A DNA stretch of 64,000 nt, taken from contig CAYJEI010000001.1 of NCBI GenBank assembly GCA_964369155.1, positions 607 through 64,606 on the forward strand. The letters are read 5' to 3'. Shown piece by piece: positions 2,297 through 56,356 of the stretch. Each line of letters starts with the position of its first letter. Position 1 is the first letter of the stretch. Origin of the DNA: an uncultured Muribaculaceae bacterium (GTDB taxonomy: Bacteria > Bacillota_I > Bacilli_A > RF39 > UBA660). The translations under genes were made by a program, and so were the position numbers. A model generated the notes under the pieces. The model was not told the DNA's origin. It made no database searches and was given only the letters and a program-made list of their open reading frames with translations.

Positions 2297-2312
2297 CTAG
2301 TTAAACATTTAA

Positions 2313-2341
2313 TTGAAAAAAGAAAATAACTATGTTAAAAT
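2313..2341 (+). promoter_or_regulatory. Sigma-A-like promoter of secreted-protein paralog 1 (TTGAAA-N17-TAAAAT), RBS AGAGAGG
   Basis: Hexamers with 17-nt spacer; about 60-bp leader identical to 5017-5078. Confidence 0.45.
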
Positions 2342-2365
2342 AAAATTAAGATAGAGAGGTTAATT

Positions 2366-3970
2366 ATGAAAGAAATATTAATAAAAAATAAAACAATAAT
2401 AATACTTTCACTTATACTTTTACTTCTAGGCGTTATAGGAGTGTCATATGCTTTTATGTCAAGTGATATTGTTGTAACAACAGAAGGCAACGCAAACACT
2501 CAGATTATTGCAGGAGATGGTTATACACTTGAGCATGTAAGAAACTCGGAAAAACTTACAGATGTAAGTGGAACTGATTACAGACTACTTGATATGTCAT
2601 CGGATATAACTCTTACAGCATTAGAACAAGTGGATACAACTTATGATTTATATTATAATGTTAAAGTTAATAATTATTTAGAAGGAACAACAACTTCTTC
2701 AGCTAAAGTAATCGTTAAAGTATTTAATCCAAGTGGAGCTGAAGTTACAACCATTACTGGACTTTCAAGAGTAACTGTAGGGTCAATTACTGGTTTTAAT
2801 TTAACAGATTATACTGGTAGTATAGAACTTGCTAAAGACTATGCTATATCAACAAACACTAGTACTACACAAAACTGGCAAGTAAAAGTATATTTATATG
2901 ATACAGCAGGTCTATCAAATATAAGTAATACATTATTTGATAGTGAACTTAATGTTGAGAAAAATATCGTGTTTGCAAAAGATTATATACTAGGACATAA
3001 TGGAGGTCAAACAGCAATAGAGGCAAAAGCGGAACCAGACTTTACACAAACTGCAACAACAGATGAAGGAATGTTTGCAGCGACAGATGAATACGGAACA
3101 AGTTACTATTATAGAGGTGCAGTAGATAATAACTGGATGCTATATAATGGAATATACTGGAGAATAGTAAGAATAGCCGGAAACGGGTCAATAAAACTAC
3201 TTTATAGTGGTACTACAGCGCCAGCGAGGGCAACAGCAACAGTAATGACTGGAAGTGGAACACAAGCTGGTACAAGTGCGTTTAATTCATCTTATAGTAA
3301 TAATGCATATGTTGGATATATGTATACACTTAATCAAAGACAAGGCCTTGGTACTAAGAGTACAATAGCAACTGTACTTGATAATTGGTATACAACAAAT
3401 ATGAATGGAGTAGACTTACAAATAGCAGATAATACATTTTGTTATGATAGAAGTTTAGCAACAGGAGGTTATCAAAGTAGTGATTTTGGATGGAATGGAA
3501 GTACATATACTGGAACAGGTATAGGAACTAGTGGTACATTATATGGTACTCATACAAGGTTAACAGCATCTAGTAGTACTTTGGAACTGGGAGGAACTGG
3601 ACCTGAACTCGCGTGTCCAAGTAGGGAGGATGCATATACAGTAGATGATACAACAAATGGAAATGGAGCACTTTCTAAAAAAGTAGGATTACTCACTGCC
3701 GATGAGGCAGTAATGGCTGGTCTAGGAGCTGGCTCTGCCAGCAGTACCAGTAGTAACTATTTGTATACAAATAGTAGCTACTGGTTAGGCTCTCCTTTTG
3801 GGTTCCGTTCTTATGATAATGCGGGTGTGTGGTATGTGTATTCTTCTGGTTCTTTGTACAACTTTAATGTCAATGATACTCGTGGTGTTCGTCCTGCAGT
3901 TTATCTCATGTCTAATATCGTGTTAAGCGGAACAGGTGAGTGGAACGACGTTTACAAAATAAAGTCTTAG
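2366..3970 (+). CDS. Secreted mosaic protein, paralog 1 (SipW-type signal peptide, TasA/camelysin-like N-domain, conserved C-terminal WLGSPFG/VRPAVYL module)
   Basis: N-terminal K-rich/hydrophobic signal ending GVSYAF; about 80% aa identity to 5076-6692; C-terminal blocks shared with 28363-30534 and 43933-46101; 3' end abuts IS remnant. Confidence 0.8.
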   Translation: MKEILIKNKTIIILSLILLLLGVIGVSYAFMSSDIVVTTEGNANTQIIAGDGYTLEHVRNSEKLTDVSGTDYRLLDMSSDITLTALEQVDTTYDLYYNVKVNNYLEGTTTSSAKVIVKVFNPSGAEVTTITGLSRVTVGSITGFNLTDYTGSIELAKDYAISTNTSTTQNWQVKVYLYDTAGLSNISNTLFDSELNVEKNIVFAKDYILGHNGGQTAIEAKAEPDFTQTATTDEGMFAATDEYGTSYYYRGAVDNNWMLYNGIYWRIVRIAGNGSIKLLYSGTTAPARATATVMTGSGTQAGTSAFNSSYSNNAYVGYMYTLNQRQGLGTKSTIATVLDNWYTTNMNGVDLQIADNTFCYDRSLATGGYQSSDFGWNGSTYTGTGIGTSGTLYGTHTRLTASSSTLELGGTGPELACPSREDAYTVDDTTNGNGALSKKVGLLTADEAVMAGLGAGSASSTSSNYLYTNSSYWLGSPFGFRSYDNAGVWYVYSSGSLYNFNVNDTRGVRPAVYLMSNIVLSGTGEWNDVYKIKS

Positions 3971-4856
3971 ATACGGACATTTTCTGATTTTTTCCTAAAA
4001 CACTGGGGAAAATGTTCCAAAATATTCGGCCGATAGATTAAAAATGTATAAAAAAATCACTTAAAATGTGATTTAAAACATACAAAAAAGGTTAAAATTT
4101 GAATTAAATTTTAAAAATTTTAAGTATATAAAATAAAATTTGTTTTAATGGTGACATTATTATTGCTGAGGTAAGCATTAAAAAGTGTTAAACCGAGATT
4201 GAAATTTGAGAGAATACGAATGTATTCTCCATTTTTTTTCTTTTTGGCAAATCTAACATTGAACTTTGTTTTTCTACGATGATAATTTTTGATGTAATCA
4301 GAACCAATAATTACAAGCCATATAGAAGCAATGCATAAAAGTGTATATAAAGTATCATATGCTTTAATATTTTTAGTTCTAGTTTTTTCAAGATTAAAAC
4401 CATTTGTTTTAGTGTTTTTGAAGAAAGATTCAATAAAACCAAATCTTTTGTTGTAATCTCTAACCGCAATATTTGGATCATTATTTGTGACAAGATACCA
4501 TGCTTCTTCATGTGTAACTGTTCTTGATATTACTAAGTTAGTTTTAATGGGATGATGCTTACCACAAGTTATATTTTTATAATATTTACTAACAAACACT
4601 TTAGGTGTGAAGTATTTTACTTTATACCATACTTCGTGTTTCTCGTTATAAGGTTTATATTTAAAATTAAGAGAACTATCTGCTTTTATTCTAAAACAAT
4701 AATAATGGTTAAGGGAATTAATACATTTAAGAATATTTAAATCAGAAAACCATCTATCTGCTAAAAAAGTTATTTTAATATCAGTATTGTTAACATAAGA
4801 AAAAGCTTCTTTAATTGCATTAAAAATAGTATTAGTCTTAAAAAGAGGTGATTGTT
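3967..4856 (-). mobile_element. Truncated, decayed copy of IS4-like insertion sequence (left inverted repeat present, 5' half of transposase gene deleted)
   Basis: Left end TTAGATACGGAC matches left inverted repeat (IRL) of the intact copy at 6738; internal sequence about 85% identical to 6738-6930; reverse-strand translation 4120-4856 aligns to C-terminal half of the 394-aa transposase with frameshifts/deletions. Confidence 0.75.
4120..4856 (-). pseudogene. Transposase pseudogene (C-terminal half, degraded upstream part)
   Basis: 159-aa ORF 4120-4599 aligns to residues about 235-394 of the transposase 6891-8075; upstream 4600-4856 still encodes HFTPKV-like remnant out of frame. Confidence 0.7.
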
Positions 4857-5022
4857 TTTATATAAAAGTTATAATTAATAAAATCTAATTTGGAAATAAA
4901 TTTCTATAGATGATTTTAATGTTAAAGTACTTTTAGAAGAAAATATTTTTTGTTTTAAAATTACAAAAATATAAATAAGATACTAAGAACTATATAAAAT
5001 GAAAAATTAATAAGTTATTTAA

Positions 5023-5051
5023 TTGAAAAAAGAAAATAACTATGTTAAAAT
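5023..5051 (+). promoter_or_regulatory. Duplicated promoter/leader of paralog 2
   Basis: Identical to 2313-2341 region. Confidence 0.45.
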
Positions 5052-5075
5052 AAAATTAAGATAGAGAGGTTAATT

Positions 5076-6692
5076 ATGAAAGAAATATTAATAAAAAATA
5101 AAACAATAATAATACTTTCACTTATACTTTTACTTCTAGGCGTTATAGGAGTGTCTTACGCTTTTATGTCAAGTGATGTTGTTGTAACAACAGAAGGTAA
5201 CGCAAATGTTCAGGTTATTGCTGGAGACGGTTATACATTTGAACATATAAGAAATATTGAGAAACTTACAGAAGTAAGTGGAACTGACTATACACTACTT
5301 GATATGTCTTCAGACATAACTCTTACAGCATTAGAACAAATTGATACAACATATGATTTATATTACAATATAAAGGTAAATAATTATTTAGAAGGAACTA
5401 CAACTTCCTCTGCTAAAGTAATTGTTAAAATCTATAATCCAAGTGGAGCTGAAGTAACATCTCTTACTGGACTTTCAAGGGTAACAGTAGGATCAATTAC
5501 TGGATTTAATTTAACAGATTACACTGGTAGTATAGAGCTTGTTAAAGATTACGCTATATCAACAAACTCTAGTATTACACAAAACTGGCAAGTAAAAGTA
5601 TATTTATATGATACAGTAGGTTTACCTAATATAAGTAATACTGTTTTTGATAGTGAAATGAATGTTGAGGAACATGATCCTTGTTGGAATCCTGAAACTT
5701 CTACAGATATAATATTATGTCATAATGGAGGACAAGCATTAATAGAAGCTAAAGCAGAACCAGATTTCACACAAGTAGCTGATACAAATGAAGGAATGTT
5801 TGCAACAACAGACACATATGGAACAGCATACTACTATAGAGGAGCAGTGGATAATAACTGGTTATACTATAATGGAATATACTGGAGAATAGTGAGTATA
5901 GCTGGAAACGGAGCTATTAAGCTACTTTATAGTGGTACTACAGCGCCAACAAGTGCAACGGCAACAGTAATGACTGGAGAACATACTGAAATAGGAGAAT
6001 ATGCATTTAATTCTACATATAATAATAATGCATATGTAGGGTATATGTATACTTTGAATCAAAGACAAGGACTAGGAACAAGTAGTCTTATAAAAACAAC
6101 ACTTGATAATTGGTACACAACAAATATGAATGGAGTTGACTCACAAATAGTAGATAATATATTTTGTTATGATAGAAGTTTAGCAAAATCTGGATATCAG
6201 AGTTCAAATTTTGGCTCAGCAAACGGAAGTTATACAGGAACTGGAACTGGAACTGTAGGTACATTATATGGAACAGCAGCAAGAATAACCGCATCAAGTA
6301 GTAGGATGGTAGCCGGTGGAACGGGACCAGACATAATGTGTCCTAGTAAAACAGATGCGTATACAGCAGGTGATACAACAAATGGTAATGGAGCTCTTTC
6401 TAAAAAAGTAGGGTTACTCACTGCCGATGAGGCAGTAATGGCAGGCCTTGCGCATGGCACAAGAAACAGTACCACCTATTTGTATACAAATAGGTGGTAC
6501 TGGTTGGGCTCTCCTTTTGGGTTCGGTTCTAATTCTACTGATTATGCTCGTGTGTGGGGTGTGGATCCTACTGGTAATTTCTACGACTTTTTTGTCAGTG
6601 CTACTTTTGGTGTGCGTCCTGCAGTTTATCTCACGTCTAATATCGTGTTAAGCGGAACAGGTGAGTGGAACGACGTTTACAAAATAAATTAG
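5076..6692 (+). CDS. Secreted mosaic protein, paralog 2
   Basis: Same architecture as paralog 1; signal peptide identical; 3' flank shared with paralog 3. Confidence 0.8.
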   Translation: MKEILIKNKTIIILSLILLLLGVIGVSYAFMSSDVVVTTEGNANVQVIAGDGYTFEHIRNIEKLTEVSGTDYTLLDMSSDITLTALEQIDTTYDLYYNIKVNNYLEGTTTSSAKVIVKIYNPSGAEVTSLTGLSRVTVGSITGFNLTDYTGSIELVKDYAISTNSSITQNWQVKVYLYDTVGLPNISNTVFDSEMNVEEHDPCWNPETSTDIILCHNGGQALIEAKAEPDFTQVADTNEGMFATTDTYGTAYYYRGAVDNNWLYYNGIYWRIVSIAGNGAIKLLYSGTTAPTSATATVMTGEHTEIGEYAFNSTYNNNAYVGYMYTLNQRQGLGTSSLIKTTLDNWYTTNMNGVDSQIVDNIFCYDRSLAKSGYQSSNFGSANGSYTGTGTGTVGTLYGTAARITASSSRMVAGGTGPDIMCPSKTDAYTAGDTTNGNGALSKKVGLLTADEAVMAGLAHGTRNSTTYLYTNRWYWLGSPFGFGSNSTDYARVWGVDPTGNFYDFFVSATFGVRPAVYLTSNIVLSGTGEWNDVYKIN

Positions 6693-6737
6693 GATTTTAG
6701 CAACACGAAAACCTCATTTCTGATAGGTCAAACGCGC

Positions 6738-8224
6738 TTAGATACGGACAATTTTCTAATTTTGTCCTAAAACACTGGTGAAAATGAGATAAAAAATACG
6801 ACCAGTAAATTAAAAAACGTTAAAAAATCACACAAAATGTGATTCAAAGCATACAAAAAAGGTCGAAAAGTGAATTGAATTTTAAAAATTTTAGATATAT
6901 AAAATAAAATTTGTTTTAATGGTGACATTATTGTTGCTGAGGTAAGCATTAAAAAGTGTTAAACAGAGATTGAAATTTGAGAGAATACGAGTGTATTCTC
7001 CATTTTTCTCTTTTTTGGCAAATCTAACATTGAATTTTGCTTTTCTATGATTATAATTTTTAATATAATTAGCACCTATTACAACTAACCAAATAGTAGC
7101 AATGCATAGAAGTGTATATAAAGTATCATAAGTTTCTATATTTTTAGTTCTGGTTTTTTCAAGATTAAATCCATTTGTTTTGATATTTTTAAAGAAAGAT
7201 TCTATTGCACCAAATCTTTTATTATAATCTCTAACTGCATCTCTTGGAGTATCATTTGTAAATAAATAATAACCTTCATCTTGACCTAAAGTTCTTGATA
7301 CAACTAGATTAGTTTTAAAAGGATTGCTTTTACTTGCAATTATATTTTCATAGTATTTGCTTGCATGAACTTTAGGAGTAAAATGTTTGATTTTATACCA
7401 AGTTTCATTATTTTCGAAATTAAATTGATATTTAAGGTTTAAGTCACTATTGGATTTCATTTTGAAGTTATAGTAGTGACCAAGTGATTCAATGTGTCTT
7501 AAAATATCAAGGTCACCGAACCATCTATCAGCTTGAAACTTAAGTTTTACATCCATTCCAGCAAAATATGAAACGACCTGATCAATAGCTACTAAAATTG
7601 TTTGTGTTATAAATATTGGTCTTTTTTTATCAAAGTCTTCTTTGGTTTTGCAAAAGTCTTTAGTTTTAGAGTTAATGAAAAATATTGGAATTCCTTGTTC
7701 ATTTACCCTAAGAGTAAAGACAAGTGCAACAAAATTATTTTTTTCCCAGGAGTGGTCTATGGTAATAAATGCTTTTTTATGTTTAAAAACAACAGAAGAT
7801 ATAATTTTTCTTATAAAAGTTTTAAATAAAAAATCACTATCTAAAGATGTATTGTTAAAAAAGCGATAAATTCTTTTTTGAACAGAATCTAAGTTAATTG
7901 AATTTACTTTATTTTTAGCAATATCTACAGTAACGATTGATTCTGCTTTAATTAAAGAAGGTACAATAGAGGATATATTTTTAAGATTAGGAATAGAAAT
8001 AGGAATATCAAGATGAGAAAAGAAATTGTAAATATCTCTTATTAAATCATTAATATTGTTATATAATTTTTTCATAAACAGCCACCTTTATATTATTTTT
8101 TTGTCAATTTAATTATAAAACAAAATGGCTGTTTATTTTATGTCTAAAATACGTTTAAGAAACGTTTAACAAATATAGTGTAAAACACTAGAAAGATCTA
8201 GTTTAAAAAAATGTCCGGATATAA
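6738..8224 (-). mobile_element. Intact IS4-like insertion sequence (about 1.49 kb) with imperfect 20-bp terminal inverted repeats
   Basis: IRL TTAGATACGGACAATTTTCT (6738) vs reverse complement of right end TTATATCCGGACATTTTTTT (8224), 16/20 match; single transposase ORF inside. Confidence 0.7.
6891..8075 (-). CDS. DDE transposase (IS4-family-like; ITIDHS, QADRWFG, YNKRFGAIESFFKNIK motifs)
   Basis: 394-aa ORF with D, D, E and Y-x2-R-x3/4-E-x6-K signature. Confidence 0.7.
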   Translation of the reverse strand: MKKLYNNINDLIRDIYNFFSHLDIPISIPNLKNISSIVPSLIKAESIVTVDIAKNKVNSINLDSVQKRIYRFFNNTSLDSDFLFKTFIRKIISSVVFKHKKAFITIDHSWEKNNFVALVFTLRVNEQGIPIFFINSKTKDFCKTKEDFDKKRPIFITQTILVAIDQVVSYFAGMDVKLKFQADRWFGDLDILRHIESLGHYYNFKMKSNSDLNLKYQFNFENNETWYKIKHFTPKVHASKYYENIIASKSNPFKTNLVVSRTLGQDEGYYLFTNDTPRDAVRDYNKRFGAIESFFKNIKTNGFNLEKTRTKNIETYDTLYTLLCIATIWLVVIGANYIKNYNHRKAKFNVRFAKKEKNGEYTRILSNFNLCLTLFNAYLSNNNVTIKTNFILYI

Positions 8225-8480
8225 GGGTATGTTGTTGAAGTGATGAGGAAACAAACAAAATCCATGGCCTATGTGTCTAAAAATGGGATAAGAGAAGAAA
8301 TAGAGTGTTAGTAGTTACAGTGCGAAAAGTAAGTTGTTTTTTTTCTCCCCTCTAGGAGATATTATGCAAAAATTTAGGCTACTTGAAAAAACAAGAAAAC
8401 AATTTTTTACGTTAATAAATATGTTGTTCCGAATATACCTAAAATTTATTCTGTTTATAGAAATGAGTTAATAAAATCGA
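8225..8480. repeat. About 250-bp noncoding repeat, copy A (about 88% identical to 31010-31265)
   Basis: Direct alignment; substitutions and non-triplet indels evenly spread, no conserved reading frame. Confidence 0.8.
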
Positions 8481-8847
8481 TGTTTATACTGCATAGAAGT
8501 ATTATAAGTGCAAATATTAACGAGGGAAATAGTAAAACTAGATTTCAAAAAGAGGCTTTAACTGAAATCTGTAATATAGATTTTATTATTTAATATTAAA
8601 TGAAATCAAAGTTATTGAAAGCAAAAGATATAACGCTATGATGAATGCTTTTTTAGAAATTAAAAAGATGCTAGAAACTTGGAGTAGTAATGAAAAGAAA
8701 AAATTATCTATTTAGTCATAATTTAAGAAGAGAAAGTATTTTTAACTGTTATTTAGATGTGAAAAGAAATTGTAAAAGTGATTTTAAACTTGCCAGTTTA
8801 GCGAAAATTTAAACTTAAATATTTTAAAAATATGTTTAAATTTACAT

Positions 8848-8878
8848 TATGATACTTATCAAATGGATAAGTATCATA
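8848..8878. promoter_or_regulatory. Perfect 13-bp inverted repeat (TATGATACTTATC-aaatg-GATAAGTATCATA) followed by T-rich tract
   Basis: Read directly; terminator-like or operator-like. Confidence 0.4.
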
Positions 8879-9040
8879 TATTTTTAATCAGAGAAAATAA
8901 AGTTATTATTAATTTATAATTAGTTTTATAAATATATTAGATACAAAAACATAACTAAATTTATTTTATTTAGTTAGTATATCTTAAGGTTATATTGTAA
9001 TATTTTAGCTTGTTTTGTCGAAGTGCTTGAAAGGAAAATT

Positions 9041-9952
9041 ATGATAGAAGAAAAAGAAATAAATCTTACTATGGATATTGTATTTAAAATGTTTTTTAAA
9101 ACTGAAGTTAAATATTTAGCGCTTGTTCTTAGTAATGTTTTAGATGAAGATATTAAAGAAAGTAATATAACTTTTCTAGATAAAGAAGAGGAAGGTGATA
9201 GTGCGCTTGATAAAGTTTGTGTACTTGATTTAAAAGTTAAACTTGATAGTGGTGAAATAATATTTATTGATATGCAAAGTTATAAAGAAAAATATTTATA
9301 TGAAAGAATGGAGTTTTATTTATCAAAGCTTACAGTTAAACAGTTAAAAAAATCTGAAAGTTATAGTAAACTTAAGAAAGTTTGTGGTATATTTTTTCTT
9401 AATTATCAAGATGAAAATTTTGATGAATTATTTACAGAAATAAAAGAATATGATACTATTAATGAAAGAGAAGTTAAAAGACTTAGAGAGAAATATATTA
9501 TTAATTTAACACATTTAGATAGAAATGAAATATTTAATAAAGATATGATGAATTTACTTAAGTTTATGACTTTAAAAAAAGAAAAGGATAGGAAAGATAT
9601 GGCAATTACTGATGAAAAATTAAAAGAAGCTTATGAAGCAATGGCTAAAATTAATTCTGATCCACTAGTTGAAGAATATATTTGGGCAAAAGAAAATGAA
9701 GAAAGAAGAAGGTTGCAAAGTATAAGTGATGCTAAGGAATTTGCAATGGAAGAAGGTTATGCAAATGGACGTATAGCTGGCCATGCTGAGGGTCATGCTG
9801 AAGGCCATGCTGAAGGTCATGCTCGAGGAATTGCTCAAGAGAAGTCTAACGTTGTTAAAGAAATGTATAAAAATAGGCTTGATATAGATTTGATAAGTAA
9901 TGTAACAAAATTATCGGAAAATGAAATTAAAAAGATATTAGATATAGAATAA
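9041..9952 (+). CDS. Rpn-family (YhgA-like, PD-(D/E)XK) recombination-promoting nuclease / putative transposase
   Basis: Typical Rpn layout with C-terminal (GHAE)x4 repeat and LSENEIKKIL tail; RBS AAAGGAAAA before ATG 9041. Confidence 0.65.
   Translation: MIEEKEINLTMDIVFKMFFKTEVKYLALVLSNVLDEDIKESNITFLDKEEEGDSALDKVCVLDLKVKLDSGEIIFIDMQSYKEKYLYERMEFYLSKLTVKQLKKSESYSKLKKVCGIFFLNYQDENFDELFTEIKEYDTINEREVKRLREKYIINLTHLDRNEIFNKDMMNLLKFMTLKKEKDRKDMAITDEKLKEAYEAMAKINSDPLVEEYIWAKENEERRRLQSISDAKEFAMEEGYANGRIAGHAEGHAEGHAEGHARGIAQEKSNVVKEMYKNRLDIDLISNVTKLSENEIKKILDIE
9779..9826 (+). repeat. Four tandem 12-nt repeats (GGYCATGCTGAR) encoding GHAEGHAEGHAEGHA
   Basis: Read directly inside the Rpn-family gene. 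Confidence 0.9.
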
Positions 9953-10043: not shown

Positions 10044-12164
10044 ATGAATTTAAATTTAATAAAAGAAGTAAGTTTAGAACTTAGTTTAAATGAAAAAGAT
10101 TGTGAAGCTGTTTTAAAACTTTTAGAAGAAGGTAATACAGTACCTTTTATAGCGAGATATAGAAAAGAAGCAACACATGGAATGGACGAAGAGCAAATTA
10201 GATTAATATCACTTAGATATGAATATATTGTTAATTTAGAAAAGAAAAAAGATGATGTAAAAAGATTGATTGATGAAAAGGGTCTTCTTACTGATGATTT
10301 AGTAAATAATATTAATAAAGCTACTAAGCTTGTTGAACTTGATGATATTTATCGTCCGTTTAAAGAAAAGAAAAAAACAAAAGCTACTGATGCGATTAAT
10401 AATGGTTTAGAACCTCTCGCAAAAGGTATTATGGCTTTTCCAACTAGTGGTTCTTTAGAAGAGATGGCTAGTAAATATGTAAATGAAAATGTTAAAAGTG
10501 TTGATGATGCGATTACTGGAGCTAAATATATTATTGCTGAGTGGATTAGTGATAATGCTTTTTATAGAAAGTATATTAGAGATAATATTTTTAAATTTGG
10601 AAGTGTAGTTACTAAGAAGAAAAAAGATGCAGTAGATGAGTCTAAAACATATGAAATGTATTATGAATTTAGTGAGAAAATTAGTTATGCTAAAGCACAC
10701 AGAGTACTTGCATTTAATAGAGCTGAAAATGAAAAAATAATATCAGTTTCACTTGATTATGATAAAACTAGAATACTTGATTTTTTAGAGAAAAAAATTA
10801 TTAAGAATAGTGATAGTTTTACTGCTTTAGAAGTTAAAGACGCTATAGCTGATTCTTTTAAAAGACTTATTTATCCTTCTGTTGAAAGAGAAATAAGAAG
10901 TGAGCTTACTAGTATGGCAGAGGTGCAAGCTATTGAAAATTTTAGTGAAAATCTTAAAAATTTACTAATGCAGCCACCAATGAAAGAAAAAGTTATTTTA
11001 GCACTTGATCCAGCTTATAGAACAGGTTGTAAACTTGCTGTTCTTGATAAAAATGGTAAAGTTTTAGATATATCAGTAATATATCCACATGAACCTAAAA
11101 ATGACAAAGCAGGAAGTGCTAAAAAGGTTTTAGAACTTATAAATAAGTATGATGTTGATATTGTTGCAATAGGTAATGGAACTGCATCACGTGAGTCAGA
11201 AGAATTTATTGCCAAGCTTATTAATGATGGTAATTTAAAATCTCAGTATATTATTGTTAATGAAGCAGGAGCATCTGTATATTCAGCTAGTAAACTAGCT
11301 ATAAGCGAGTTTCCAGATTACTCTGTAGAGCAAAGAAGTGCAGTATCAATTGGTAGAAGACTTCAAGACCCACTTTCAGAACTTGTTAAAATTGATCCAG
11401 AATCAATAGGTGTTGGCTTATATCAACATGATGTTGCGAATAAATCATTAAAAGAGTCACTAGATTTTGTTGTATTATCATCAGTTAATAGTGTAGGAGT
11501 AGACGTAAATACAGCAAGTATAGCTTTATTTAAATACGTTTCAGGTATCACTAGTAAGATGGCTGAAAAATTAATTGCTTATAGAGAAAAATCTAAAAAA
11601 ATTTCATCAAGAATAGAGCTTAAAAAAATACTAAGTGATAAGGTATACCAGCAGGCTATTGGTTTTATGAGGATAAATGACGGAGATAATTTACTTGATG
11701 AGACTGCAATACATCCAGAAAGTTATGATATTGCTACTTTAATTTTAAAAGATAACAATCTAAGTATAAGTGATATAGGAACTGAAAAAGTATTGAAAAT
11801 CAATTTTGTAAATAAATATGATATAGATAACTATACATTTGATGATATAGTAGATTCATTTAAAAAACCAAAAAGAGATCCAAGAGATGAGTTTGATAAA
11901 CCAATTTTAAAATCTAGTATCTTAAAATTAGAAGATTTAAAACTTGGAGATGAATTACAGGGTACTGTAAGAAATGTTATAGATTTTGGAGCTTTTGTAG
12001 ATATTGGACTTAAAAATGATGGACTTGTTCATATATCTAAAATAACTAAAGAGTATATAAAACATCCATCAGAAGTTTTATCTATTGGTCAAATTATTAC
12101 TTGCCATGTTGAAAAAATTGATTTAAAAAAGAAAAAAGTATCACTTACAATGTTAGGAGAATAA
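10044..12164 (+). CDS. tex: Transcription accessory protein Tex (YqgF/HhH/S1 domains)
   Basis: 706 aa; N-terminal FIARYRKE motif, C-terminal S1 domain. Confidence 0.9.
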   Translation: MNLNLIKEVSLELSLNEKDCEAVLKLLEEGNTVPFIARYRKEATHGMDEEQIRLISLRYEYIVNLEKKKDDVKRLIDEKGLLTDDLVNNINKATKLVELDDIYRPFKEKKKTKATDAINNGLEPLAKGIMAFPTSGSLEEMASKYVNENVKSVDDAITGAKYIIAEWISDNAFYRKYIRDNIFKFGSVVTKKKKDAVDESKTYEMYYEFSEKISYAKAHRVLAFNRAENEKIISVSLDYDKTRILDFLEKKIIKNSDSFTALEVKDAIADSFKRLIYPSVEREIRSELTSMAEVQAIENFSENLKNLLMQPPMKEKVILALDPAYRTGCKLAVLDKNGKVLDISVIYPHEPKNDKAGSAKKVLELINKYDVDIVAIGNGTASRESEEFIAKLINDGNLKSQYIIVNEAGASVYSASKLAISEFPDYSVEQRSAVSIGRRLQDPLSELVKIDPESIGVGLYQHDVANKSLKESLDFVVLSSVNSVGVDVNTASIALFKYVSGITSKMAEKLIAYREKSKKISSRIELKKILSDKVYQQAIGFMRINDGDNLLDETAIHPESYDIATLILKDNNLSISDIGTEKVLKINFVNKYDIDNYTFDDIVDSFKKPKRDPRDEFDKPILKSSILKLEDLKLGDELQGTVRNVIDFGAFVDIGLKNDGLVHISKITKEYIKHPSEVLSIGQIITCHVEKIDLKKKKVSLTMLGE

Positions 12165-12166
12165 AA

Positions 12167-12589
12167 ATGAAATTCAAAATTATTAGTTTATTTTTAATTA
12201 CTTTAGTTCTTACTACAGGATGTTTTAATAATAAAGAAGAACTTGTGTGTTCAACAACTGAAGTTATTGATAGCTACGAGTTTAATGTGGATTATACATA
12301 TGAATTTGATTCAGACGGAGAAACTTTAAAATATTCATCTATAAAAACATCACTTCCAGGTGAGACAGATGAAAGTATTTTAGAGGAACTTGAAAAGGTA
12401 TGTGATGTTTACATTGGCGTTCAAGGTATAGAATGTAAAATGAATATTAATCCTGGAGAATACGAAGCATTAATTACAGTTGATATAAGTAAAGTTTCTA
12501 CTGATACACTAAAAAGTATGAATTTAGAAAATATAACTTATGACAGTATTCGTGAAACCTTAGAAAAAAATGAATACATGTGTGAATAA
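12167..12589 (+). CDS. Small Cys-rich lipoprotein (paralog A)
   Basis: Lipobox LTTGC; 4 conserved Cys; ends YMCE. Confidence 0.6.
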   Translation: MKFKIISLFLITLVLTTGCFNNKEELVCSTTEVIDSYEFNVDYTYEFDSDGETLKYSSIKTSLPGETDESILEELEKVCDVYIGVQGIECKMNINPGEYEALITVDISKVSTDTLKSMNLENITYDSIRETLEKNEYMCE

Positions 12590-13029
12590 TGAAAGCTGGA
12601 AAAATTATTATCTTGCTGTTTTTATTAATATGTGTAACTGGTTGTAAAAGCAATTTACTTACCGAAAATATAAGTCTTTCATGTGAATATAAAAGTAATG
12701 ATCAAGAAATGGAAAATGTAACTAGCTATTTAGATGCAGTATATGATGAAGCTGGTGAGACTTTATTATCAAGAACTGTTGTTACGAATATTGATTTTAA
12801 AGCACCGATAAATGTTTCAGTAGAAGATTTAAACAAAGATTGTGATCCCTATAAAGATATAAAAGGAGTTAGTTGTAAAGTTACAGCTAATGAAAATATT
12901 TATTCGATAAGAATAGATTATGATTATAATCTCATTACTAATGATTTTTTAGAGGAAGATAACTTTTATCCGTTACCACTTAGTGACTATAAAGAAATAC
13001 TAAAAACAAGTGGGTACATATGTGATTAA
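12589..13029 (+). CDS. Small Cys-rich lipoprotein (paralog B)
   Basis: Lipobox VTGC; same Cys spacing as paralog A; ends YICD. Confidence 0.6.
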   Translation: MKAGKIIILLFLLICVTGCKSNLLTENISLSCEYKSNDQEMENVTSYLDAVYDEAGETLLSRTVVTNIDFKAPINVSVEDLNKDCDPYKDIKGVSCKVTANENIYSIRIDYDYNLITNDFLEEDNFYPLPLSDYKEILKTSGYICD

Positions 13030-13054
13030 GCATTTTAATAATGCTTTTTTTATG
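13027..13054 (+). terminator. Rho-independent terminator
   Basis: AAGCATT-ttaat-AATGCTT + T7. Confidence 0.6.
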
Positions 13055-13079
13055 TTAGAATAAAAACAAGGAGAAAAAA

Positions 13080-14264
13080 ATGCAAGTAGAAATAATAAGA
13101 TTAGATGATAATGCTAGAGGAATAGGATACGTTGATGGAAAAATAGTTTTTGTACCTAAGACAATTCCTGGTGATATAGTTGAGATAAATATTACATTAG
13201 ATAAGAAAAAATATAGTGAGGCTGTAGTAACTAAGTATGTTAAAAATGCTAAAAATAAAATAGAGCCAGTTTGTCCTTATTTTGATAAGTGTGGAGGATG
13301 TCAACTATTAAATGTAAGCTATGAAGATGGAATTAATAGTAAAATTGCAATTTTTGAAAATAATTTAAAAAGATCAGGTTTTAACCAAAAAGTAGTATTA
13401 ACTAAAAATGAAAATCATTATAATTATAGAAATAAAGTTACTCTAAAAATAGTAGATGGAAAAATAGGTTTTTATGAAAAAAGTACAAATAATTTAACTG
13501 AAATTAATTATTGTCATTTAGGTAGTAATATAATAAATAAATATATTAGTGAAATTTCAAAACTAAAATTAATAAATGCAACTGTATCTATAAGAAGCAA
13601 TTTTAGAAATGAAGTAATGATAATTGTAGATACTAAAAATAAAGTTGAAATTGATTTGCTTAACTTAGAAGATGTAGTAGGTGTTATTGTAAATAATGAA
13701 ATTAAATACGGCACAATGTACTTAAATGATAACTTAAATGGTTTAAATTATGAAATATCTTATGACTCTTTCTTTCAAGTTAATCCATATATTACATCTA
13801 AAGTTATTGATTTAATTAATAAAAATTTAACTAAAGATGATGTAGTATTAGACTTATATTGTGGAGTCGGGACACTTGGTTTAGCAGCAGCAAATTCTGT
13901 TAAAAAAGTATATGGTATAGAAAAATATAAAAATGCAGTCATAAATGCAAAAAATAACACTATTTTAAATAATATAGAAAATGCCAGTTTTAAAATAGGT
14001 GATTTATCAAAAAACATAAAGCTAAGCAGTGACATCAATACTTTTATAGTAGATCCACCAAGAGCAGGACTTGATAAACCAGTAATTGATACAATATCTG
14101 AATTTAAACCAAATAAAATTATTTATATGTCATGTAATCCTAATACATTAATAAGAGATTTAAAGTTATTAAGTGAAAATTACGAATTTGATTATATAGC
14201 AGCCTTTGATATGTTTAGTTTCACAGCTCATGTTGAGTGCGTAGTTACACTATGTCGTAAATAA
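13080..14264 (+). CDS. rlmCD: 23S rRNA (uracil-C5)-methyltransferase RlmCD/RumA family (TRAM + Fe-S cluster Cys + SAM MTase)
   Basis: CPYFDKCGGCQL cluster, C-terminal MTase motifs. Confidence 0.85.
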   Translation: MQVEIIRLDDNARGIGYVDGKIVFVPKTIPGDIVEINITLDKKKYSEAVVTKYVKNAKNKIEPVCPYFDKCGGCQLLNVSYEDGINSKIAIFENNLKRSGFNQKVVLTKNENHYNYRNKVTLKIVDGKIGFYEKSTNNLTEINYCHLGSNIINKYISEISKLKLINATVSIRSNFRNEVMIIVDTKNKVEIDLLNLEDVVGVIVNNEIKYGTMYLNDNLNGLNYEISYDSFFQVNPYITSKVIDLINKNLTKDDVVLDLYCGVGTLGLAAANSVKKVYGIEKYKNAVINAKNNTILNNIENASFKIGDLSKNIKLSSDINTFIVDPPRAGLDKPVIDTISEFKPNKIIYMSCNPNTLIRDLKLLSENYEFDYIAAFDMFSFTAHVECVVTLCRK

Positions 14265-28362: not shown

Positions 28363-30534
28363 ATGGAGCAAATAAAAAAAGTTAAAAAAAGAGTAATAGT
28401 TATGATAGTAAGTGTACTTGTACTGACTATAAGCGTAGGATACGCATTTATAGCAGGAGGAGTAGGACCAGCTGCTAATACAGATGTGGATATAGCAAGT
28501 GGGTCTACAACTAAACTTACATTTACAGAAGGAACACCTATAGGTTTAGAGTTAAATCAAACAACGCTTGCTGAAGGTGGTAGTGATGTAAGAGGAACTA
28601 CTACATCAAGTGCAACACTTACACTTGGTACTAATGTGACAAGCGCAACAGAGTATTATCAAGTTTATTTAAATATAGAAGCAAATAATTTTATTTATAC
28701 AACATCAGCAAAAACACCAGAGATATTACTTTCAGTAACTGATCCTGAAGGAAATGCTAAAAGTATAGAAGGTCTTCCAGAAGTATCTGCTGGAGTATAT
28801 GACATAACAGATTATAAAGGTCTTATAAAAATAGTAGAAGATTACGAAATTACAGGAAGCACTACAACAGTGCATGACTGGGAAGCAACAATAACATTTG
28901 TAAATTTAGACTCAAATCAAGCAGCTAATAGTGAAAAATCATTAGATGCAACTCTTATATTACAACAACCGAAAATGATGATACCAGATATAGGAATAGT
29001 AACTCCGGAAGGATGCACAGACTGTGGTCCAGGTGAAACAGTAGTAACTCCATCTACAGGAGATGTAGGGGAAAATGGTTCTACATATGATATATATACA
29101 GTAGGCTATGTAACTAATACATCAGCAACTGGAGTAACATACTCTATAGATATAAAAATACCAGGAATGGATTACTCTAAGCAAACTTTAGAACTAGTAA
29201 ATACAGCAGAAGTAATGGAACTTTTATTTGATTATGAAGAGTATATAGATTTTAAAGGTTCAGGAGTAATATCTAGTGGAAATACTGATGCAAGTGCAGT
29301 AGCAACAGCAAACGATCTTCATACATCATCAATGAAAGAAAGTAACTTAACTATAAATAGTGTAAAAGTAACATGTGGATCAGATAAATGTACAGCAGTA
29401 ATAACTGAAACATTTAGTAACTTATCAGGGTTAACAGCACACTCTACAACAACAAATAGTGGAGCAGCAATTAATGCAATATATAATGGAATAATGTTTA
29501 ATGTAATGTTAAGTGAAAAAACTGACCCATGTATAAATCCAACATCATCAAAAGATTTAATACTATGTCACAATGGAGGGCAAGCAGTAATAGAGGCAAA
29601 AGCAGAGCCTGATTTTACACAAGTAGCTGATACAAATGAAGGAATGTTTGCAGCAGAAGATGAATATGGAACAAGTTACTATTATAGAGGTGCTGTAGAC
29701 AATAACTGGGTGTTATTTAATGGAATATACTGGAGAATAGTAAGTATAGCAGGAGATGGCTCATTAAAACTACTTTATAGTGGCACTACAGCGCCGACAA
29801 GTTCAACAGCAACTGTTATGACTGGAAGTGGAACAGAGATAGGTACTAGCGCGTTTAATACAAGTATTAATGATAATGCGTATGTAGGATACATGTATAC
29901 TTTAAATCAAAGACAAGGATTAGGAACATCAAGTACAATAAAAGGAACTTTAGAAACCTGGTATACAACTAATATGAATGGAGTTGACTCACAAATAGCA
30001 GATAATATATTTTGTTATGATAGGAGTTTAGCTACAGCTGGATTTCAAAATTATAATTATGGCTCAACAAATGGAATTTATACAGGAACTGGAATAGGAA
30101 CAAGTGGTACATTATACGGAGTGACTGCAAGAATAACAGCATCAAGTAGTTCTTTTGGCCCAGGGGGAACAGGACCAGACTTAATGTGTCCTAGCAAAGA
30201 AGATGCGTATACAGTAGATGATACAACAAACGGAAATGGAGCTCTTTCTAAAAAAGTAGGGTTACTCACTGCCGATGAGGCAGTAATGGCAGGCCTTGCG
30301 TCTGGCATAAACATCTTTAGTAACTATTTGTACACAAATAGTAGGTACTGGTTGGGATCTCCTTTTGGGTTCTATTCTAGTTCTCATGCTCGTGTGTGGT
30401 ATGTGTATTCTTCTGGTCGTTTGAGCAACGATTATGTCAATTATGTTTGTGGTGTCCGCCCTACAGTTTATCTTTCATCTAATATCGTGTTAAGCGGAAC
30501 AGGTGAGTGGAACGACGTTTACAAAATAAATTAG
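28363..30534 (+). CDS. Secreted mosaic protein, paralog 3 (long form, extra about 190-aa insert)
   Basis: Signal ending ISVGYAF; N-domain type B shared with paralog 4; C-terminal module and 3' flank shared with paralog 2. Confidence 0.8.
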   Translation: MEQIKKVKKRVIVMIVSVLVLTISVGYAFIAGGVGPAANTDVDIASGSTTKLTFTEGTPIGLELNQTTLAEGGSDVRGTTTSSATLTLGTNVTSATEYYQVYLNIEANNFIYTTSAKTPEILLSVTDPEGNAKSIEGLPEVSAGVYDITDYKGLIKIVEDYEITGSTTTVHDWEATITFVNLDSNQAANSEKSLDATLILQQPKMMIPDIGIVTPEGCTDCGPGETVVTPSTGDVGENGSTYDIYTVGYVTNTSATGVTYSIDIKIPGMDYSKQTLELVNTAEVMELLFDYEEYIDFKGSGVISSGNTDASAVATANDLHTSSMKESNLTINSVKVTCGSDKCTAVITETFSNLSGLTAHSTTTNSGAAINAIYNGIMFNVMLSEKTDPCINPTSSKDLILCHNGGQAVIEAKAEPDFTQVADTNEGMFAAEDEYGTSYYYRGAVDNNWVLFNGIYWRIVSIAGDGSLKLLYSGTTAPTSSTATVMTGSGTEIGTSAFNTSINDNAYVGYMYTLNQRQGLGTSSTIKGTLETWYTTNMNGVDSQIADNIFCYDRSLATAGFQNYNYGSTNGIYTGTGIGTSGTLYGVTARITASSSSFGPGGTGPDLMCPSKEDAYTVDDTTNGNGALSKKVGLLTADEAVMAGLASGINIFSNYLYTNSRYWLGSPFGFYSSSHARVWYVYSSGRLSNDYVNYVCGVRPTVYLSSNIVLSGTGEWNDVYKIN

Positions 30535-30558: not shown

Positions 30559-30584
30559 TTTCTGATAGGTCAAACGAGGGAGTC
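30559..30584 (+). terminator. Terminator-like hairpin GGTCAAACGA-gggag-TCGTTTGACC downstream of paralog 3
   Basis: 10-bp stem; 5' arm also present after paralog 2 where the IS follows. Confidence 0.5.
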
Positions 30585-30766
30585 GTTTGACCGTAATTTA
30601 GTTGTGGGGAATATCAAAAAATAGAGAAAGTCTGATTTATATCCGCCGAAAGGCGGAAAATATTTGACACAAAATATACATATTGGATATTTTGTGTCTT
30701 TTTGTAATTACGCATTATTTGCTTATCGTAAATTTGGTATAATATAATTGTATACAAGTTATACTG

Positions 30767-30912
30767 GGTTTTGTTACTTAGGGATCTCCTTTGGGTTCAA
30801 TTTTAATAATATTAATATATGGAAAGTGAATTCTTTTGGTAATTTGAAGAACAATAATGTCACTAATACTAATGGAATGCGTCTTGCAGAGCTTCCTTTC
30901 ATAATTTTAAAA
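30767..30912 (+). pseudogene. Frameshifted AT-rich fragment homologous to the C-terminal about 45 codons of the secreted-protein family
   Basis: Translates (with one frameshift) to LYW / YLGISFGFNFNNINIWKVNSFGNLKNNNVTNTNGMRLAELPFIILK*, which aligns to YWLGSPFGF...VWYVYSSGRL..GVRPTVYLSSNIVL; preceded by TTGCTT...TGgTATAAT promoter-like sequence. Confidence 0.55.
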
Positions 30913-31009: not shown

Positions 31010-31265
31010 AATAAAGTGATGAGAAAACAAACAAAATTCATGGTCTATGTGCCTAGAATTAGGATAAGAGAAGAAATAGTGTATTAGTAGTACAGTGTGA
31101 AAAGTAAGTTGTTTTTATTCTCCACTACAGGAGATATTATGCAAAAATTTAGGTTACTCGAAAAAACTAGGAAAACAATTTCTAGTTAATAAATATGTTG
31201 CTTTGAATATATCTAAAATTTATTCAGTATATAGAAACGAATTAATTAAATCGATGTTTATTTTG
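31010..31265. repeat. About 250-bp noncoding repeat, copy B
   Basis: About 88% identical to 8225-8480. Confidence 0.8.
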
Positions 31266-31399: not shown

Positions 31400-31570
31400 A
31401 TTCTAGTGCGGAGGATATAGAAAGTAATTAGCGCAGGGATTAAGGTATCTTAATTGACGAGGTGTATAGTTATCGATTTATCAGCGGATGCTATACCGGC
31501 CAAAAGTGGTCGTTAAATATATGACAAAAAATAAAATTTAAGATTATAACAAAGCATATATTAAGAAAGG
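31400..31570 (+). ncRNA. glmS ribozyme: glmS ribozyme (GlcN6P-responsive self-cleaving riboswitch)
   Basis: A|GCGCAGGG cleavage-site core (A31430/G31431), P1 AUUAAG..CUUAAU, GACGAGG, P2 GUGUAUAG-UUAUCGAUUUAUCAGCGGAUGC-UAUAC matching the B. subtilis glmS leader; immediately 5' of glmS. Confidence 0.85.
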
Positions 31571-31583
31571 AAATAATTTTTAT

Positions 31584-36513: not shown

Positions 36514-36519
36514 ATAGTC

Positions 36520-36712
36520 AGCAAGCAAAGAAGTTTGAGGAGTAAAATATTATTTATTTTTAGAGAGTTAGTGTGAGGTGAAAACTAACAATAAATATAT
36601 TTGAAGGTTGCAAACGGAGTTTGAACGGTTAGAACCGATATATTCTAGATAAGTTAAAATTAAGGTGGTACCGCGTATAATACGCCCTTTGGTATTACCT
36701 TTTTATTTTGGG
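36520..36712 (+). promoter_or_regulatory. T-box riboswitch leader of valS
   Basis: AGAGA box, conserved T-box AATTAAGGTGGTACCGCG (36657-36675), overlapping terminator GGTGGTACC...GGTATTACC + T-run. Confidence 0.8.
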
Positions 36713-56279: not shown

Positions 56280-56356
56280 GTTCTTGTAACTCAGCTGGAT
56301 AGAGTAAATGCCTCCGACGCATTAAGTCTAGGGTTCGAGTCCCTACAAGAACGCCA
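56280..56356 (+). tRNA. tRNA-Arg (anticodon CCG)
   Basis: Manual fold: acceptor GTTCTTG/CAAGAAC, D-stem ACTC/GAGT, anticodon stem AATGC/GCATT with loop CTCCGAC, T-stem TAGGG/CCCTA with loop TTCGAGT, 3' CCA. Confidence 0.85.

Follow-up and report, generated by a model that had tools for sequence, protein, structure and literature searches.

Positions 2307 to 8225 of the window (the whole 64,000-nucleotide stretch of DNA analysed here) contain two tandem paralogous genes, each followed by a copy of an IS4-like element, and this arrangement is probably the result of a site- and orientation-specific IS having inserted at the 3' ends of paralogs that were already in tandem. Independent, targeted insertions of this kind fit the data better than duplication of a combined gene and IS unit. 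The element itself is a previously uncatalogued IS4-like element of about 1.5 kb with a Tn5-fold DDE transposase and CT-ended inverted repeats. The first-pass annotation had described the region as a tandem duplication of promoter, gene and IS; the collinearity on which that description relied was recovered, but not the duplication as a unit, as the gene-IS junctions of the two units differ by 47 nt and divergence along the units is not uniform.

At the nucleotide level, positions 2307 to about 4762 form a collinear direct duplication with positions 5017 to about 7533, and at the protein level the homology continues to 4857 and 7628, respectively. The same components follow each other in the same order in both segments: first a leader, then a paralogous gene, and last an IS4-like element lying on the minus strand. 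The leaders (2307-2365 and 5017-5075, plus strand) both contain a promoter-like TTGAAA-17-TAAAAT, its -10 being of the extended type (2313-2341 and 5023-5051), and a GAGAGG sequence (2354-2359 and 5064-5069). They had been noted as identical over 60 bp, and the identical run is longer, extending over 139 nt (2307-2445 and 5017-5155). The truncated IS of unit 1 is not joined directly to the leader of unit 2, as had been supposed, but is separated from it by an AT-rich spacer of 156 nt (4861-5016), which matched neither the IS nor anything else to which it was compared. Origin of this spacer from a degraded IS was rejected, its local alignment score of 25 not being significant against shuffled sequences (19.8 +/- 2.6).

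The paralogs of units 1 and 2 (2366-3970, 534 residues, and 5076-6692, 538 residues; both on the plus strand) share 80% amino acid identity. In the unit 1 protein a hydrophobic anchor at the N-terminus is combined with a DUF6273 domain (C-type-lectin-like) at the C-terminus, and variable patches resembling DGR variable regions are found at about 3794-3899 and 6513-6624 in the two genes. The genes are a tandem pair from a large lineage-specific family of uncultured low-GC gut Bacilli, whose proteins are membrane-anchored or secreted and carry a C-terminal DUF6273 C-type-lectin-like domain with a DGR-type variable patch. DUF6273 is known as a C-lectin-like DGR target domain (PMC10743442). Two further plus-strand members in the window are free of IS: paralog 3 (28363-30534, 723 residues), of which the 3' flank serves as reference for an uninterrupted unit 2 flank, and paralog 4 (43933-46101, 722 residues), which has an ordinary terminator downstream.

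Unit 2 contains the intact element (6737-8225, minus strand, 1489 bp), bounded by the inverted repeats CTTAGATACGGACAATTTTCTAA and CTTATATCCGGACATTTTTTTAA (6737-6759 and 8203-8225); its ends lie one base outside the positions 6738 and 8224 proposed previously. It encodes a transposase of 394 residues (8075 to 6891) with D107, D183 and E292 as DDE triad, and a hairpin with a T-run follows the transposase stop codon at about 6817-6850. The unit 2 paralog has kept its native TAG stop codon, and its canonical IS site (between TAC and AAAATAAATT) is empty; the element starts 47 nt beyond the stop codon, at a non-canonical position inside the loop of a conserved hairpin. Of this hairpin the 5' arm GGTCAAACG and the first two loop bases remain (6726-6736, plus strand) and the 3' arm is missing at the locus. 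The earlier observation that the IS follows the 5' hairpin arm (GGTCAAACG-cg) was corroborated by the flank of paralog 3, which is 95% identical and has the intact hairpin GGTCAAACG-agggagt-CGTTTGACC at 30568-30592 (plus strand), 34 nt past the stop codon. The structure had been called a terminator; the hairpin is real, but because it has no T-tract the terminator role is unproven. Compared with the paralog 3 locus, about 437 nt are absent beside the unit 2 IS, a stretch which at paralog 3 contains the 3' arm of the hairpin and a relic template repeat. Target-site duplications are not visible for either IS copy in the window, in agreement with the first-pass annotation. Its explanation by IS-adjacent deletion is supported for unit 2 by the missing 437 nt, but is not supported as stated for unit 1. 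As the unit 2 copy occupies a non-canonical site and has no target duplication, it does not by itself illustrate targeting. Its present flank may have been formed by a deletion, either through recombination between two IS copies or adjacent to the IS.

In unit 1 a truncated copy (3966 to about 4860, minus strand) has retained the gene-facing inverted repeat CTTAGATACGGACATTTTCTGA, starting at 3966, and has lost the other one. The transposase remnant (4857 to 4123) corresponds to residues 150-394 and is open over 245 codons without a stop; the first Asp of the triad is missing. The loss amounts to about 40% of the element (transposase residues 1-149 and the right inverted repeat) and not to its right half, as had been claimed. 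The IS end provides the unit 1 paralog with its last codon and its TAG stop, giving the previously noted C-terminus ..YKIKS with the stop codon inside the terminal repeat. This junction lies 10 nt past a conserved Tyr codon (TAC), which is the canonical insertion position of the IS family, so that an IS-adjacent deletion need not have shaped it. We suggest that this copy reached its site through a targeted transposition of its own, and that a deletion subsequently removed the right 40%.

The assignment of the element to a family rests on several criteria. The transposase passes the Pfam DDE_Tnp_1 threshold (27.3 bits against a cut-off of 23), and stays below the NCBIfam cut-offs for transpos_IS4_2 (75 against 152 bits) and IS4_1 (27.7 against 115). 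The triad residues D107, D183 and E292, with spacings of 76 and 109, are invariant in 15 homologues, as is the signature Y284-2-R287-4-E292-6-K299, in which the spacing between R and E is 4. The protein is encoded by a single ORF without frameshift and aligns over its full length with homologues of 380-403 residues. There was no sequence-level match to solved transposases, but the AlphaFold model (pLDDT 83.4, pTM 0.86) has Tn5 transposase as its top PDB matches (1MUH and 4DM0; E about 2e-9, TM 0.55-0.59). IS4-type elements mostly show little insertion specificity. The IS4 family is defined by a triad spaced D(60-110)D(100-150)E, a Y(2)R(3)E(6)K signature, a single ORF and target duplications of 8-13 bp, and groups with variant YREK signatures have been split off from it as separate families (De Palmenaer et al. 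2008, PMC2266710). The window element shares with IS50/Tn5, IS10 and IS231 the single-ORF DDE organization with in-range D-76-D-109-E spacing, the Tn5-like predicted fold, the size of about 1.5 kb and, in its relatives, target duplications of 9-10 bp; its 5'-CT ends resemble those of the IS10, IS50 and ISPepr1 subgroups. It differs by Y(2)R(4)E(6)K in place of Y(2)R(3)E(6)K, by its NCBIfam scores and by being strictly specific, in both site and orientation, for the end of a protein-coding gene family, a behaviour that is not described for the IS4 family, IS231 having only a loose target preference (PMC2266710). The label IS4-like is reasonable with respect to fold and DDE spacing, but not with respect to the exact YREK signature.

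Strong support for targeting comes from relatives of the window IS in other genomes and metagenomes, where 45 non-redundant sites were compiled. A C-terminal motif of the paralog family was found at 30 of the 45 gene-facing junctions (31 if unit 1 is included), always in one orientation. The motif was absent from all 57 junctions at the opposite end of the IS, and of 20,000 random positions 51 carried it (0.26%). The target gene product ends in ..SG(S/D)G(S/T)xx(D/N)P(Y/F/I)x(V/I)x, and in 26 of 33 junctions a distance of 7-10 nt separates the P-[YFI] codons from the IS end beyond them; of the 45 junctions, 15 are non-canonical. At four genome loci (L034, L083, L027 and L084) the gene-facing inverted repeat adjoins or overlaps the stop codon. 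A metagenome scan yielded 20 loci with the C-terminus of a family gene 116-341 nt past the transposase stop codon, all convergent. Moreover, transposases that are 75-93% identical occur beside paralogs of just 30-61% identity (two such copies are found in one genome, CAKORX01), which means that the insertions were independent. The earlier proposal that IS4-like elements target the 3' ends of the paralogs is thus supported well beyond the window.

Target duplications of 7-12 bp, mostly 9-10 bp, could be identified at 15 loci and span the last codons of the gene. The consensus of the gene-facing end is CTGATTGACGGACA, and the repeat starts with CTGATTGA.. or CTTAG.., its terminal CTGA or CTTAG restoring the stop codon. 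As the stop codon is supplied by the IS end, the target protein remains the same or is changed by one or two residues; it is exactly restored at L164, L173, L124 and L157. The element would insert in the last three or so codons, 7-10 nt past the Pro-Tyr/Phe/Ile codons, with its transposase gene convergent to the target. RNA-guided targeting was considered and rejected: there was no guide-like complementarity between non-coding regions of the IS and the targets (7.46 against 6.85 +/- 1.67 in controls), and the longest exact matches to the own target were no better than those to other targets. It is probably the transposase itself that recognises the conserved coding DNA. No empty site syntenic with the window (ATPase, Tex, Rpn and glmS neighbours) was present among the loci of the closest genome. 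A transposase-only scan of species-representative genome contigs gave no match, the source genome being outside that set, and a literature search returned no specific account of an IS with such gene-end behaviour.

The association could also be taken to mean that the transposase-like gene is not selfish but a domesticated, stable partner inherited with the genes, which might supply a stop codon or terminator, promote recombination among the 3' ends of paralogs or uncouple these from a DGR. In one species at least 24 contigs, obtained from different samples, share an insertion at an identical place, the association extends to transposases only 32-44% identical to that of the window, the gene-facing end is adapted to stop-codon restoration, and in unit 2 the element lies between the variable region and DGR-associated sequences. 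We nevertheless regard domestication as highly improbable, since the elements have clear terminal inverted repeats, 9-10-bp target duplications and reconstructable empty sites, near-identical transposases are found beside very different paralogs, many copies are decayed, frameshifted or truncated (L034, L027, L070, unit 1 of the window and a remnant in L008), and one third of the insertions lie elsewhere, all of which is typical of an active selfish element.

With respect to the history of the locus, the two units have not diverged evenly: identity is 100% in the 5'-most 139 nt and as low as 60% in the distal IS, and dS ranges from 0.19 to more than 1.9. For the two IS copies blastn gives 78% identity over 797 nt; their coding part is 74% identical in nucleotides and 69% in amino acids, and the identity, 93% close to the gene-facing inverted repeat, declines to 60% farther away from it. 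The identity of about 85% reported in the first-pass annotation applies to the roughly 500 nt nearest that repeat (about 87%), but not elsewhere. The window copies are each other's closest relatives, with 68% amino acid identity compared to at most 53% with any other copy found. This mutual closeness, together with a proximal identity near the 82-85% of the genes, would also fit a single IS downstream of a single gene, followed by tandem duplication of leader, gene and IS, divergence of the copies, and deletions in unit 1 of 47 nt and of the right part of the IS. Such a course of events accounts for homology that is collinear across leader, gene and IS, with order and orientation conserved, and agrees with target duplications not being visible, but we consider it rather unlikely. 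It leaves the unit 1 junction exactly at the position of de novo insertion, for which the chance by a random adjacent deletion is about 1 in 50. In addition, dS of the IS pair (0.95, and saturated distally at more than 1.9) is about twice that of the gene pair (0.47), although this comparison is weakened by the 139-nt identical run, as gene conversion could make the genes look younger. The dN/dS ratio of 0.23 for the IS pair, indicating purifying selection, and the 245 stop-free codons of the remnant in DNA of 27% GC imply divergence under selection for transposase function, which is not expected for two copies residing at fixed loci, and the unit 2 transposase would have to have remained intact despite such an age. 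Finally, relatives commonly have tandem paralogs that lack an IS (L007 and L027), so that such tandems arise without it. Under the preferred reading of targeted insertion, the gene duplication would be older than the IS insertions and independent of them, and gene-conversion tracts, such as the identical 5' run, may since have blurred the relative ages.

The surroundings of the insertions contain putative remains of a DGR. A degenerate template-repeat-like (TR-like) element is located at 30747-30889 (plus strand), with AAY at 10 of its 29 in-frame codons. When compared with the four variable patches, mismatches concentrate at adenines of the TR-like element: in its core, mismatches affect 17-24 of the 35 adenine sites as against 8-11 of the 62 sites with other bases (p 1e-7 to 2e-3). 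The element also has indels, so it is either a relic or a repeat that does not serve as the current template. AT-drift was rejected as origin of the pattern, as the mismatches are biased to A positions and not to other bases. The orthologous TR-like relics of the window and L006 differ from each other without adenine bias. Just beyond the unit 2 IS, a plus-strand segment (8238-8487) shares 87% identity with 31014-31261, which lies downstream of paralog 3, and forms the upstream part of a module with an avd-like pseudogene. This pseudogene (8408-8682, plus strand, frameshifted) aligns with the protein in the avd position of the related MAG L045 (residues 17-79 with E 9e-6, residues 86-110 collinear), and is followed by a putative N-terminal relic of a DGR-type reverse transcriptase of about 71 residues (8690-8901, plus strand), with weak similarity in two collinear segments to the L045 enzyme (E 0.005). 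Both fragments were unrecognised in Pfam, NCBIfam and PDB sequence searches and gave a signal only against the cassette of L045, which is complete and intact and has 24 of its 26 TR/VR mismatches at adenines. The Y[AVMILC]DD motif is absent from all frames of the window.

In common with DGRs that have C-type-lectin-fold targets (BPP-1 Mtd, Treponema TvpA), the window has a C-terminal variable patch, here within the C-type-lectin-like domain of the paralogs, an AAY-rich template-like repeat, adenine-biased mismatches, a hairpin after the gene, and avd and reverse transcriptase relics. Unlike these systems it has no reverse transcriptase gene and its template repeat is degenerate. The hairpin, with a 9-bp stem and a 7-nt loop at about 110 nt from the variable patch, does not fit the DGR hairpin, which has a 4-nt GRNA loop at 4-34 bp (PMC3240598). 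Close homologues of the paralogs (P0065, P0128 and P0104) have no reverse transcriptase nearby, which implies that the family is not always DGR-linked. A literature search on DGRs in RF39 gave nothing specific.

Among elements with a defined insertion site, Tn7 is guided by TnsD to attTn7, downstream of glmS, and integrates there at a fixed offset and in one orientation, leaving the gene of this 'safe haven' intact; it depends on a dedicated target-selector protein and a heteromeric transposase, and uses a single essential target gene. The element described here likewise has a conserved 3' coding sequence as target, with fixed offset, one orientation and an intact product. It differs from Tn7 in that its sole protein is the 394-residue transposase, the target family is multi-copy and dispensable, and insertion takes place within the last codons. 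The IS1202 group (ISAjo2-related, pdif/dif-targeting; PMC10132070) also consists of DDE IS of about 1.5 kb that are repeatedly found with a single orientation and at a constant short distance from a specific, recurring host sequence, but these have a transposase of another family and target an Xer site instead of coding DNA (PMC10132070). In our case a multigene family provides the target, in the form of its final codons, and the stop codon is rebuilt by the IS end. We are inclined to view the element as representing an undescribed clade, possibly a new family beside IS4, of single-protein DDE IS of which the transposase reads ..(D/N)P(Y/F)xVx-stop codons, inserts in one orientation, rebuilds the stop codon and uses a DGR-diversified multigene family of surface proteins as a safe haven, thereby separating variable regions from downstream cis-elements of the DGR.

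The picture of an old duplicated unit is superseded by a history in which gene duplication would have been followed by targeted insertions and then by IS-associated deletions. A compact single-protein DDE element that is strictly specific, in site and orientation, for the end of a coding sequence would provide a new and simple model for protein-directed target selection, and the repair of the gene it enters would be a natural example of near-harmless integration. The annotation of uncultured gut Bacilli with small genomes is also affected, as variable surface-protein families, DGR relics and IS copies are intertwined in these organisms. Insertion of an IS beside a variable region may freeze the diversification of individual paralogs.

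Self-alignment of the window bore out the collinear duplication of two units described in the first-pass annotation, each comprising a leader, a paralog gene and an IS4-like element: positions 2307 to about 4762 pair with 5017 to about 7533 as a direct repeat, with 85% identity over 2415 aligned bases, and in translated comparison the IS part of the repeat reaches 4857 and 7628. The paralog genes, u1 (2366–3970, 534 aa) and u2 (5076–6692, 538 aa), share 80% protein identity (dN 0.14, dS 0.47). Both leaders carry a promoter-like TTGAAA-17-TAAAAT with an extended -10, as well as a GAGAGG ribosome-binding site; such promoter-like matches are frequent in the 27%-GC DNA of the window, where 58 were found versus 42 expected. 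A run of 139 nt spanning the leader and the first 27 codons (2307–2445 and 5017–5155) is perfectly identical, while the units elsewhere are about 82–85% identical, which suggests that this stretch has either undergone gene conversion recently or is under unusually strong constraint.

The IS of unit 2 (6737–8225, 1489 bp) is indeed intact, with a single minus-strand ORF (394 aa) and both terminal repeats, which are imperfect (CTTAGATACGGACAATTTTCTAA and CTTATATCCGGACATTTTTTTAA). The copy in unit 1 extends from 3966 to near 4860 and retains the gene-facing repeat and codons 150–394; all 245 remaining codons are open and 69% identical to those of unit 2. This truncated copy had been taken to join directly onto the leader of unit 2, but 156 nt (4861–5016) intervene, with no match to anything, including the missing part of the IS. 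The two copies are related as proposed, but not at a uniform 85%: identity drops in steps from 93%, over the 49 codons closest to the repeat, to 60%, with dS climbing from 0.19 to more than 1.9 (overall 0.95; dN/dS 0.23).

The transposase scores above the cut-off for Pfam DDE_Tnp_1 and far under those of the NCBIfam IS4 models, and the only protein among 5.8 billion with more than 44% identity to it is the window's own. Residues D107, D183, E292, Y284, R287 and K299 show no variation across 15 aligned homologues. The best match of its structure model (pLDDT 83) is Tn5 transposase (E 2e-9), while a PDB sequence search gave no match. When the criteria for the IS4 family (PMC2266710) were applied, the DDE spacing, single ORF, CT ends and duplications of about 10 bp fitted, whereas the signature reads Y(2)R(4)E(6)K instead of Y(2)R(3)E(6)K. 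The element is IS4-like, and a possible member of the IS4 family in the strict sense.

The proposal that the IS targets the 3' ends of these genes is strongly supported by other genomes and metagenomes. Among the genome loci fetched for the paralog family, four contain relatives of the IS, each directly after a family gene and transcribed towards it, with the gene-facing repeat abutting or overlapping the stop codon; the arrangement is identical in L084, a locus found separately through a transposase homologue. Since the transposases of the genome loci are 75–93% identical to each other while the adjoining paralogs share just 30–61% identity, and since a single genome has two copies beside different paralogs, these copies represent independent insertions rather than inherited modules. 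A metagenome scan with the transposase profile yielded 80 further loci, in 20 of which a recognisable family gene ends 116–341 nt past the transposase stop, convergent every time. Junctions read directly show that distant relatives of the IS, too, abut ORFs ending in ..SG(S/D/E)G(S/T)xx(D/N)P(Y/F/I)x(V/I/L)x, which have the same C-terminal domain layout, albeit with weak Pfam detection. This motif is present at 30 of 45 non-redundant gene-facing junctions (31 with unit 1 added), compared to none of 57 junctions at the opposite IS end and 51 of 20,000 random positions, and the IS end lies 7–10 nt past the P-[YFI] codons in 26 out of 33 junctions.

Clean target duplications of 7–12 bp, mostly 9–10 bp, were identified at fifteen loci and span the last three codons or so. 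The reported lack of duplications holds within the window, but not at these loci. In reconstructed empty sites the native stop begins 9–12 nt after the start of the duplication; the CTGA or CTTAG at the IS end recreates a stop, leaving the protein unaltered in several cases, and long ORFs in these sequences do end at TGA. No complementarity of the non-coding regions of the IS to their targets was found, and protein–DNA recognition would be the default explanation of how the target is located. One IS copy, with a 10-bp duplication (TTATAGTAGA) and inside an array of several family genes, occupies the same insertion site in no fewer than 24 contigs of separate metagenomes (ENA contigs L084–L089, several samples), and this insertion appears to be fixed in that population.

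The targeted gene family has two further members in the window (paralog 3, 28363–30534, and paralog 4, 43933–46101), others on other NCBI contigs, and hundreds in metagenomes. In one-genome-per-species data it is concentrated in uncultured low-GC Bacilli MAGs, among them "Mycoplasma sp. CAG:472/776", Candidatus Caccenecus and numerous entries named "uncultured Bacilli". The family, low in GC and of Bacilli type, is also present in MAG records entitled "uncultured Muribaculaceae bacterium" (L005–L030; CAYJ.., CAYO.. and CAYQ.. accessions), which include the closest relatives of the window, and this title is probably a batch mislabel. In L001 (ENA contig NODE_27, 10373–14816) a 761-aa homologue lies directly upstream of a Tad-type pilus/secretion gene set (TadE, ParA/CpaE-like, T2SSE and two T2SSF), which hints that some family members are pilus-associated.

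The C-terminal region of about 330 aa is well conserved in the family apart from a single hypervariable patch, and was assigned to Pfam DUF6273, a C-type-lectin-like domain hypermutated by diversity-generating retroelements (DGRs) (PMC10743442). At 30747–30889, 155 nt past the hairpin that follows paralog 3, lies an AAY-rich copy of this patch. Compared to all four variable patches it has mismatches at 17–24 of 35 A sites and at 8–11 of 62 other sites, and the positions that vary among the patches coincide with its adenines (p 4e-7); as it also carries indels, it is best read as a relic of a template repeat (TR). A near-perfect palindrome of about 40 nt lies within the coding sequence (..NYLYTNSSYW..) and borders the variable patch on its 5' side (3746–3785 and 6464–6505); homology to the relic, too, starts at this point (TTGTATACAA). 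The counterpart of the relic in the closest genome (L006, 10455–10615) differs from that of the window without adenine bias, as expected if they are two decaying orthologues.

A complete DGR cassette adjoins a family member in a related uncultured Bacilli MAG (L045, CAKOIF010000013.1, 10001–13618), with target, GC-rich hairpin (GAGGCTCGA-ctct-TCGAGCCTC), accessory gene avd, TR (11986–12111) and reverse transcriptase (RT; 12296–13618, IGNVCSQ..YMDD); 24 of the 26 mismatches between TR and variable region (VR) are at adenines. Its avd-position protein matches window positions 8408–8590 (E 9e-6), within a frameshifted avd-like pseudogene (8408–8682) located after the IS of unit 2, and the N-terminus of its RT weakly matches 8690–8901 (E 0.005), a short RT relic; no RT motif was found anywhere in the window. 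Because of these matches, unit 2 is best regarded as having once served as the target of a DGR cassette, since defunct. The truncated RT relic is directly followed by a gene (9023–9952) for a PD-(D/E)XK "transposase-like" nuclease (Pfam PDDEXK_2, E 1e-18), which has a GHAE repeat close to the C-terminus; a further rearrangement boundary may lie here.

The 3' flank of paralog 3 is 95% identical to that of unit 2 and runs on through an intact hairpin (GGTCAAACG-agggagt-CGTTTGACC). This places the IS of unit 2 in the hairpin loop, just after the 5' arm, as first described; the hairpin itself is real but lacks the T-tract of a terminator. Published DGR hairpins have a 4-nt GRNA loop and lie 4–34 bp from the VR (PMC3240598), and the hairpin in the window breaks both rules. 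Unit 2 lacks about 437 nt that are present at paralog 3, among them the 3' arm of the hairpin and the template repeat, and has the IS in their place. Segment 8238–8487 matches 31014–31261, a second, shorter avd-upstream module after paralog 3 that ends just before a glmS ribozyme (31419–31572, upstream of glmS). The window also contains a T-box leader (36519–36692) and one tRNA gene (56280–56353).

The junction of unit 1 (TAC AAA ATA AAG T|CTTAG) is at exactly the canonical position, and in the closest genome a paralog of 70% identity is followed, at that position, by 120 nt left over from the same end of the IS, 80% identical to that of unit 1. The junction of unit 2 is non-canonical, lacks a duplication and goes together with the deletion of about 437 nt. 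Tandem paralogs free of IS are found in the relatives L007 (37-nt spacer) and L027. Taken together, the junctions, these IS-free tandem paralogs, dS and dN/dS favour a history in which the gene would first have been duplicated in tandem, after which two related IS copies would have arrived independently. Deletions would then have removed the right part of the unit-1 IS and, perhaps via recombination between two IS copies, the hairpin arm and TR beside the unit-2 IS; finally, gene-conversion tracts could account for the 139-nt stretch of 5' identity and for the gradient in similarity. Co-duplication of gene and IS as one unit, in line with the two IS copies being each other's nearest relatives and with genes that may have been rejuvenated by conversion, is the less probable course, though one to be taken seriously.

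A non-exhaustive literature search revealed no account of an IS that inserts specifically into the final codons of the members of a gene family and restores their stop. Site- and orientation-specific insertion by a DDE transposase is shared with Tn7, which inserts at glmS. It is likewise shared with IS1202-group elements, which insert at dif sites (PMC10132070). For IS4-family elements, loose target preferences at most are described (PMC2266710).
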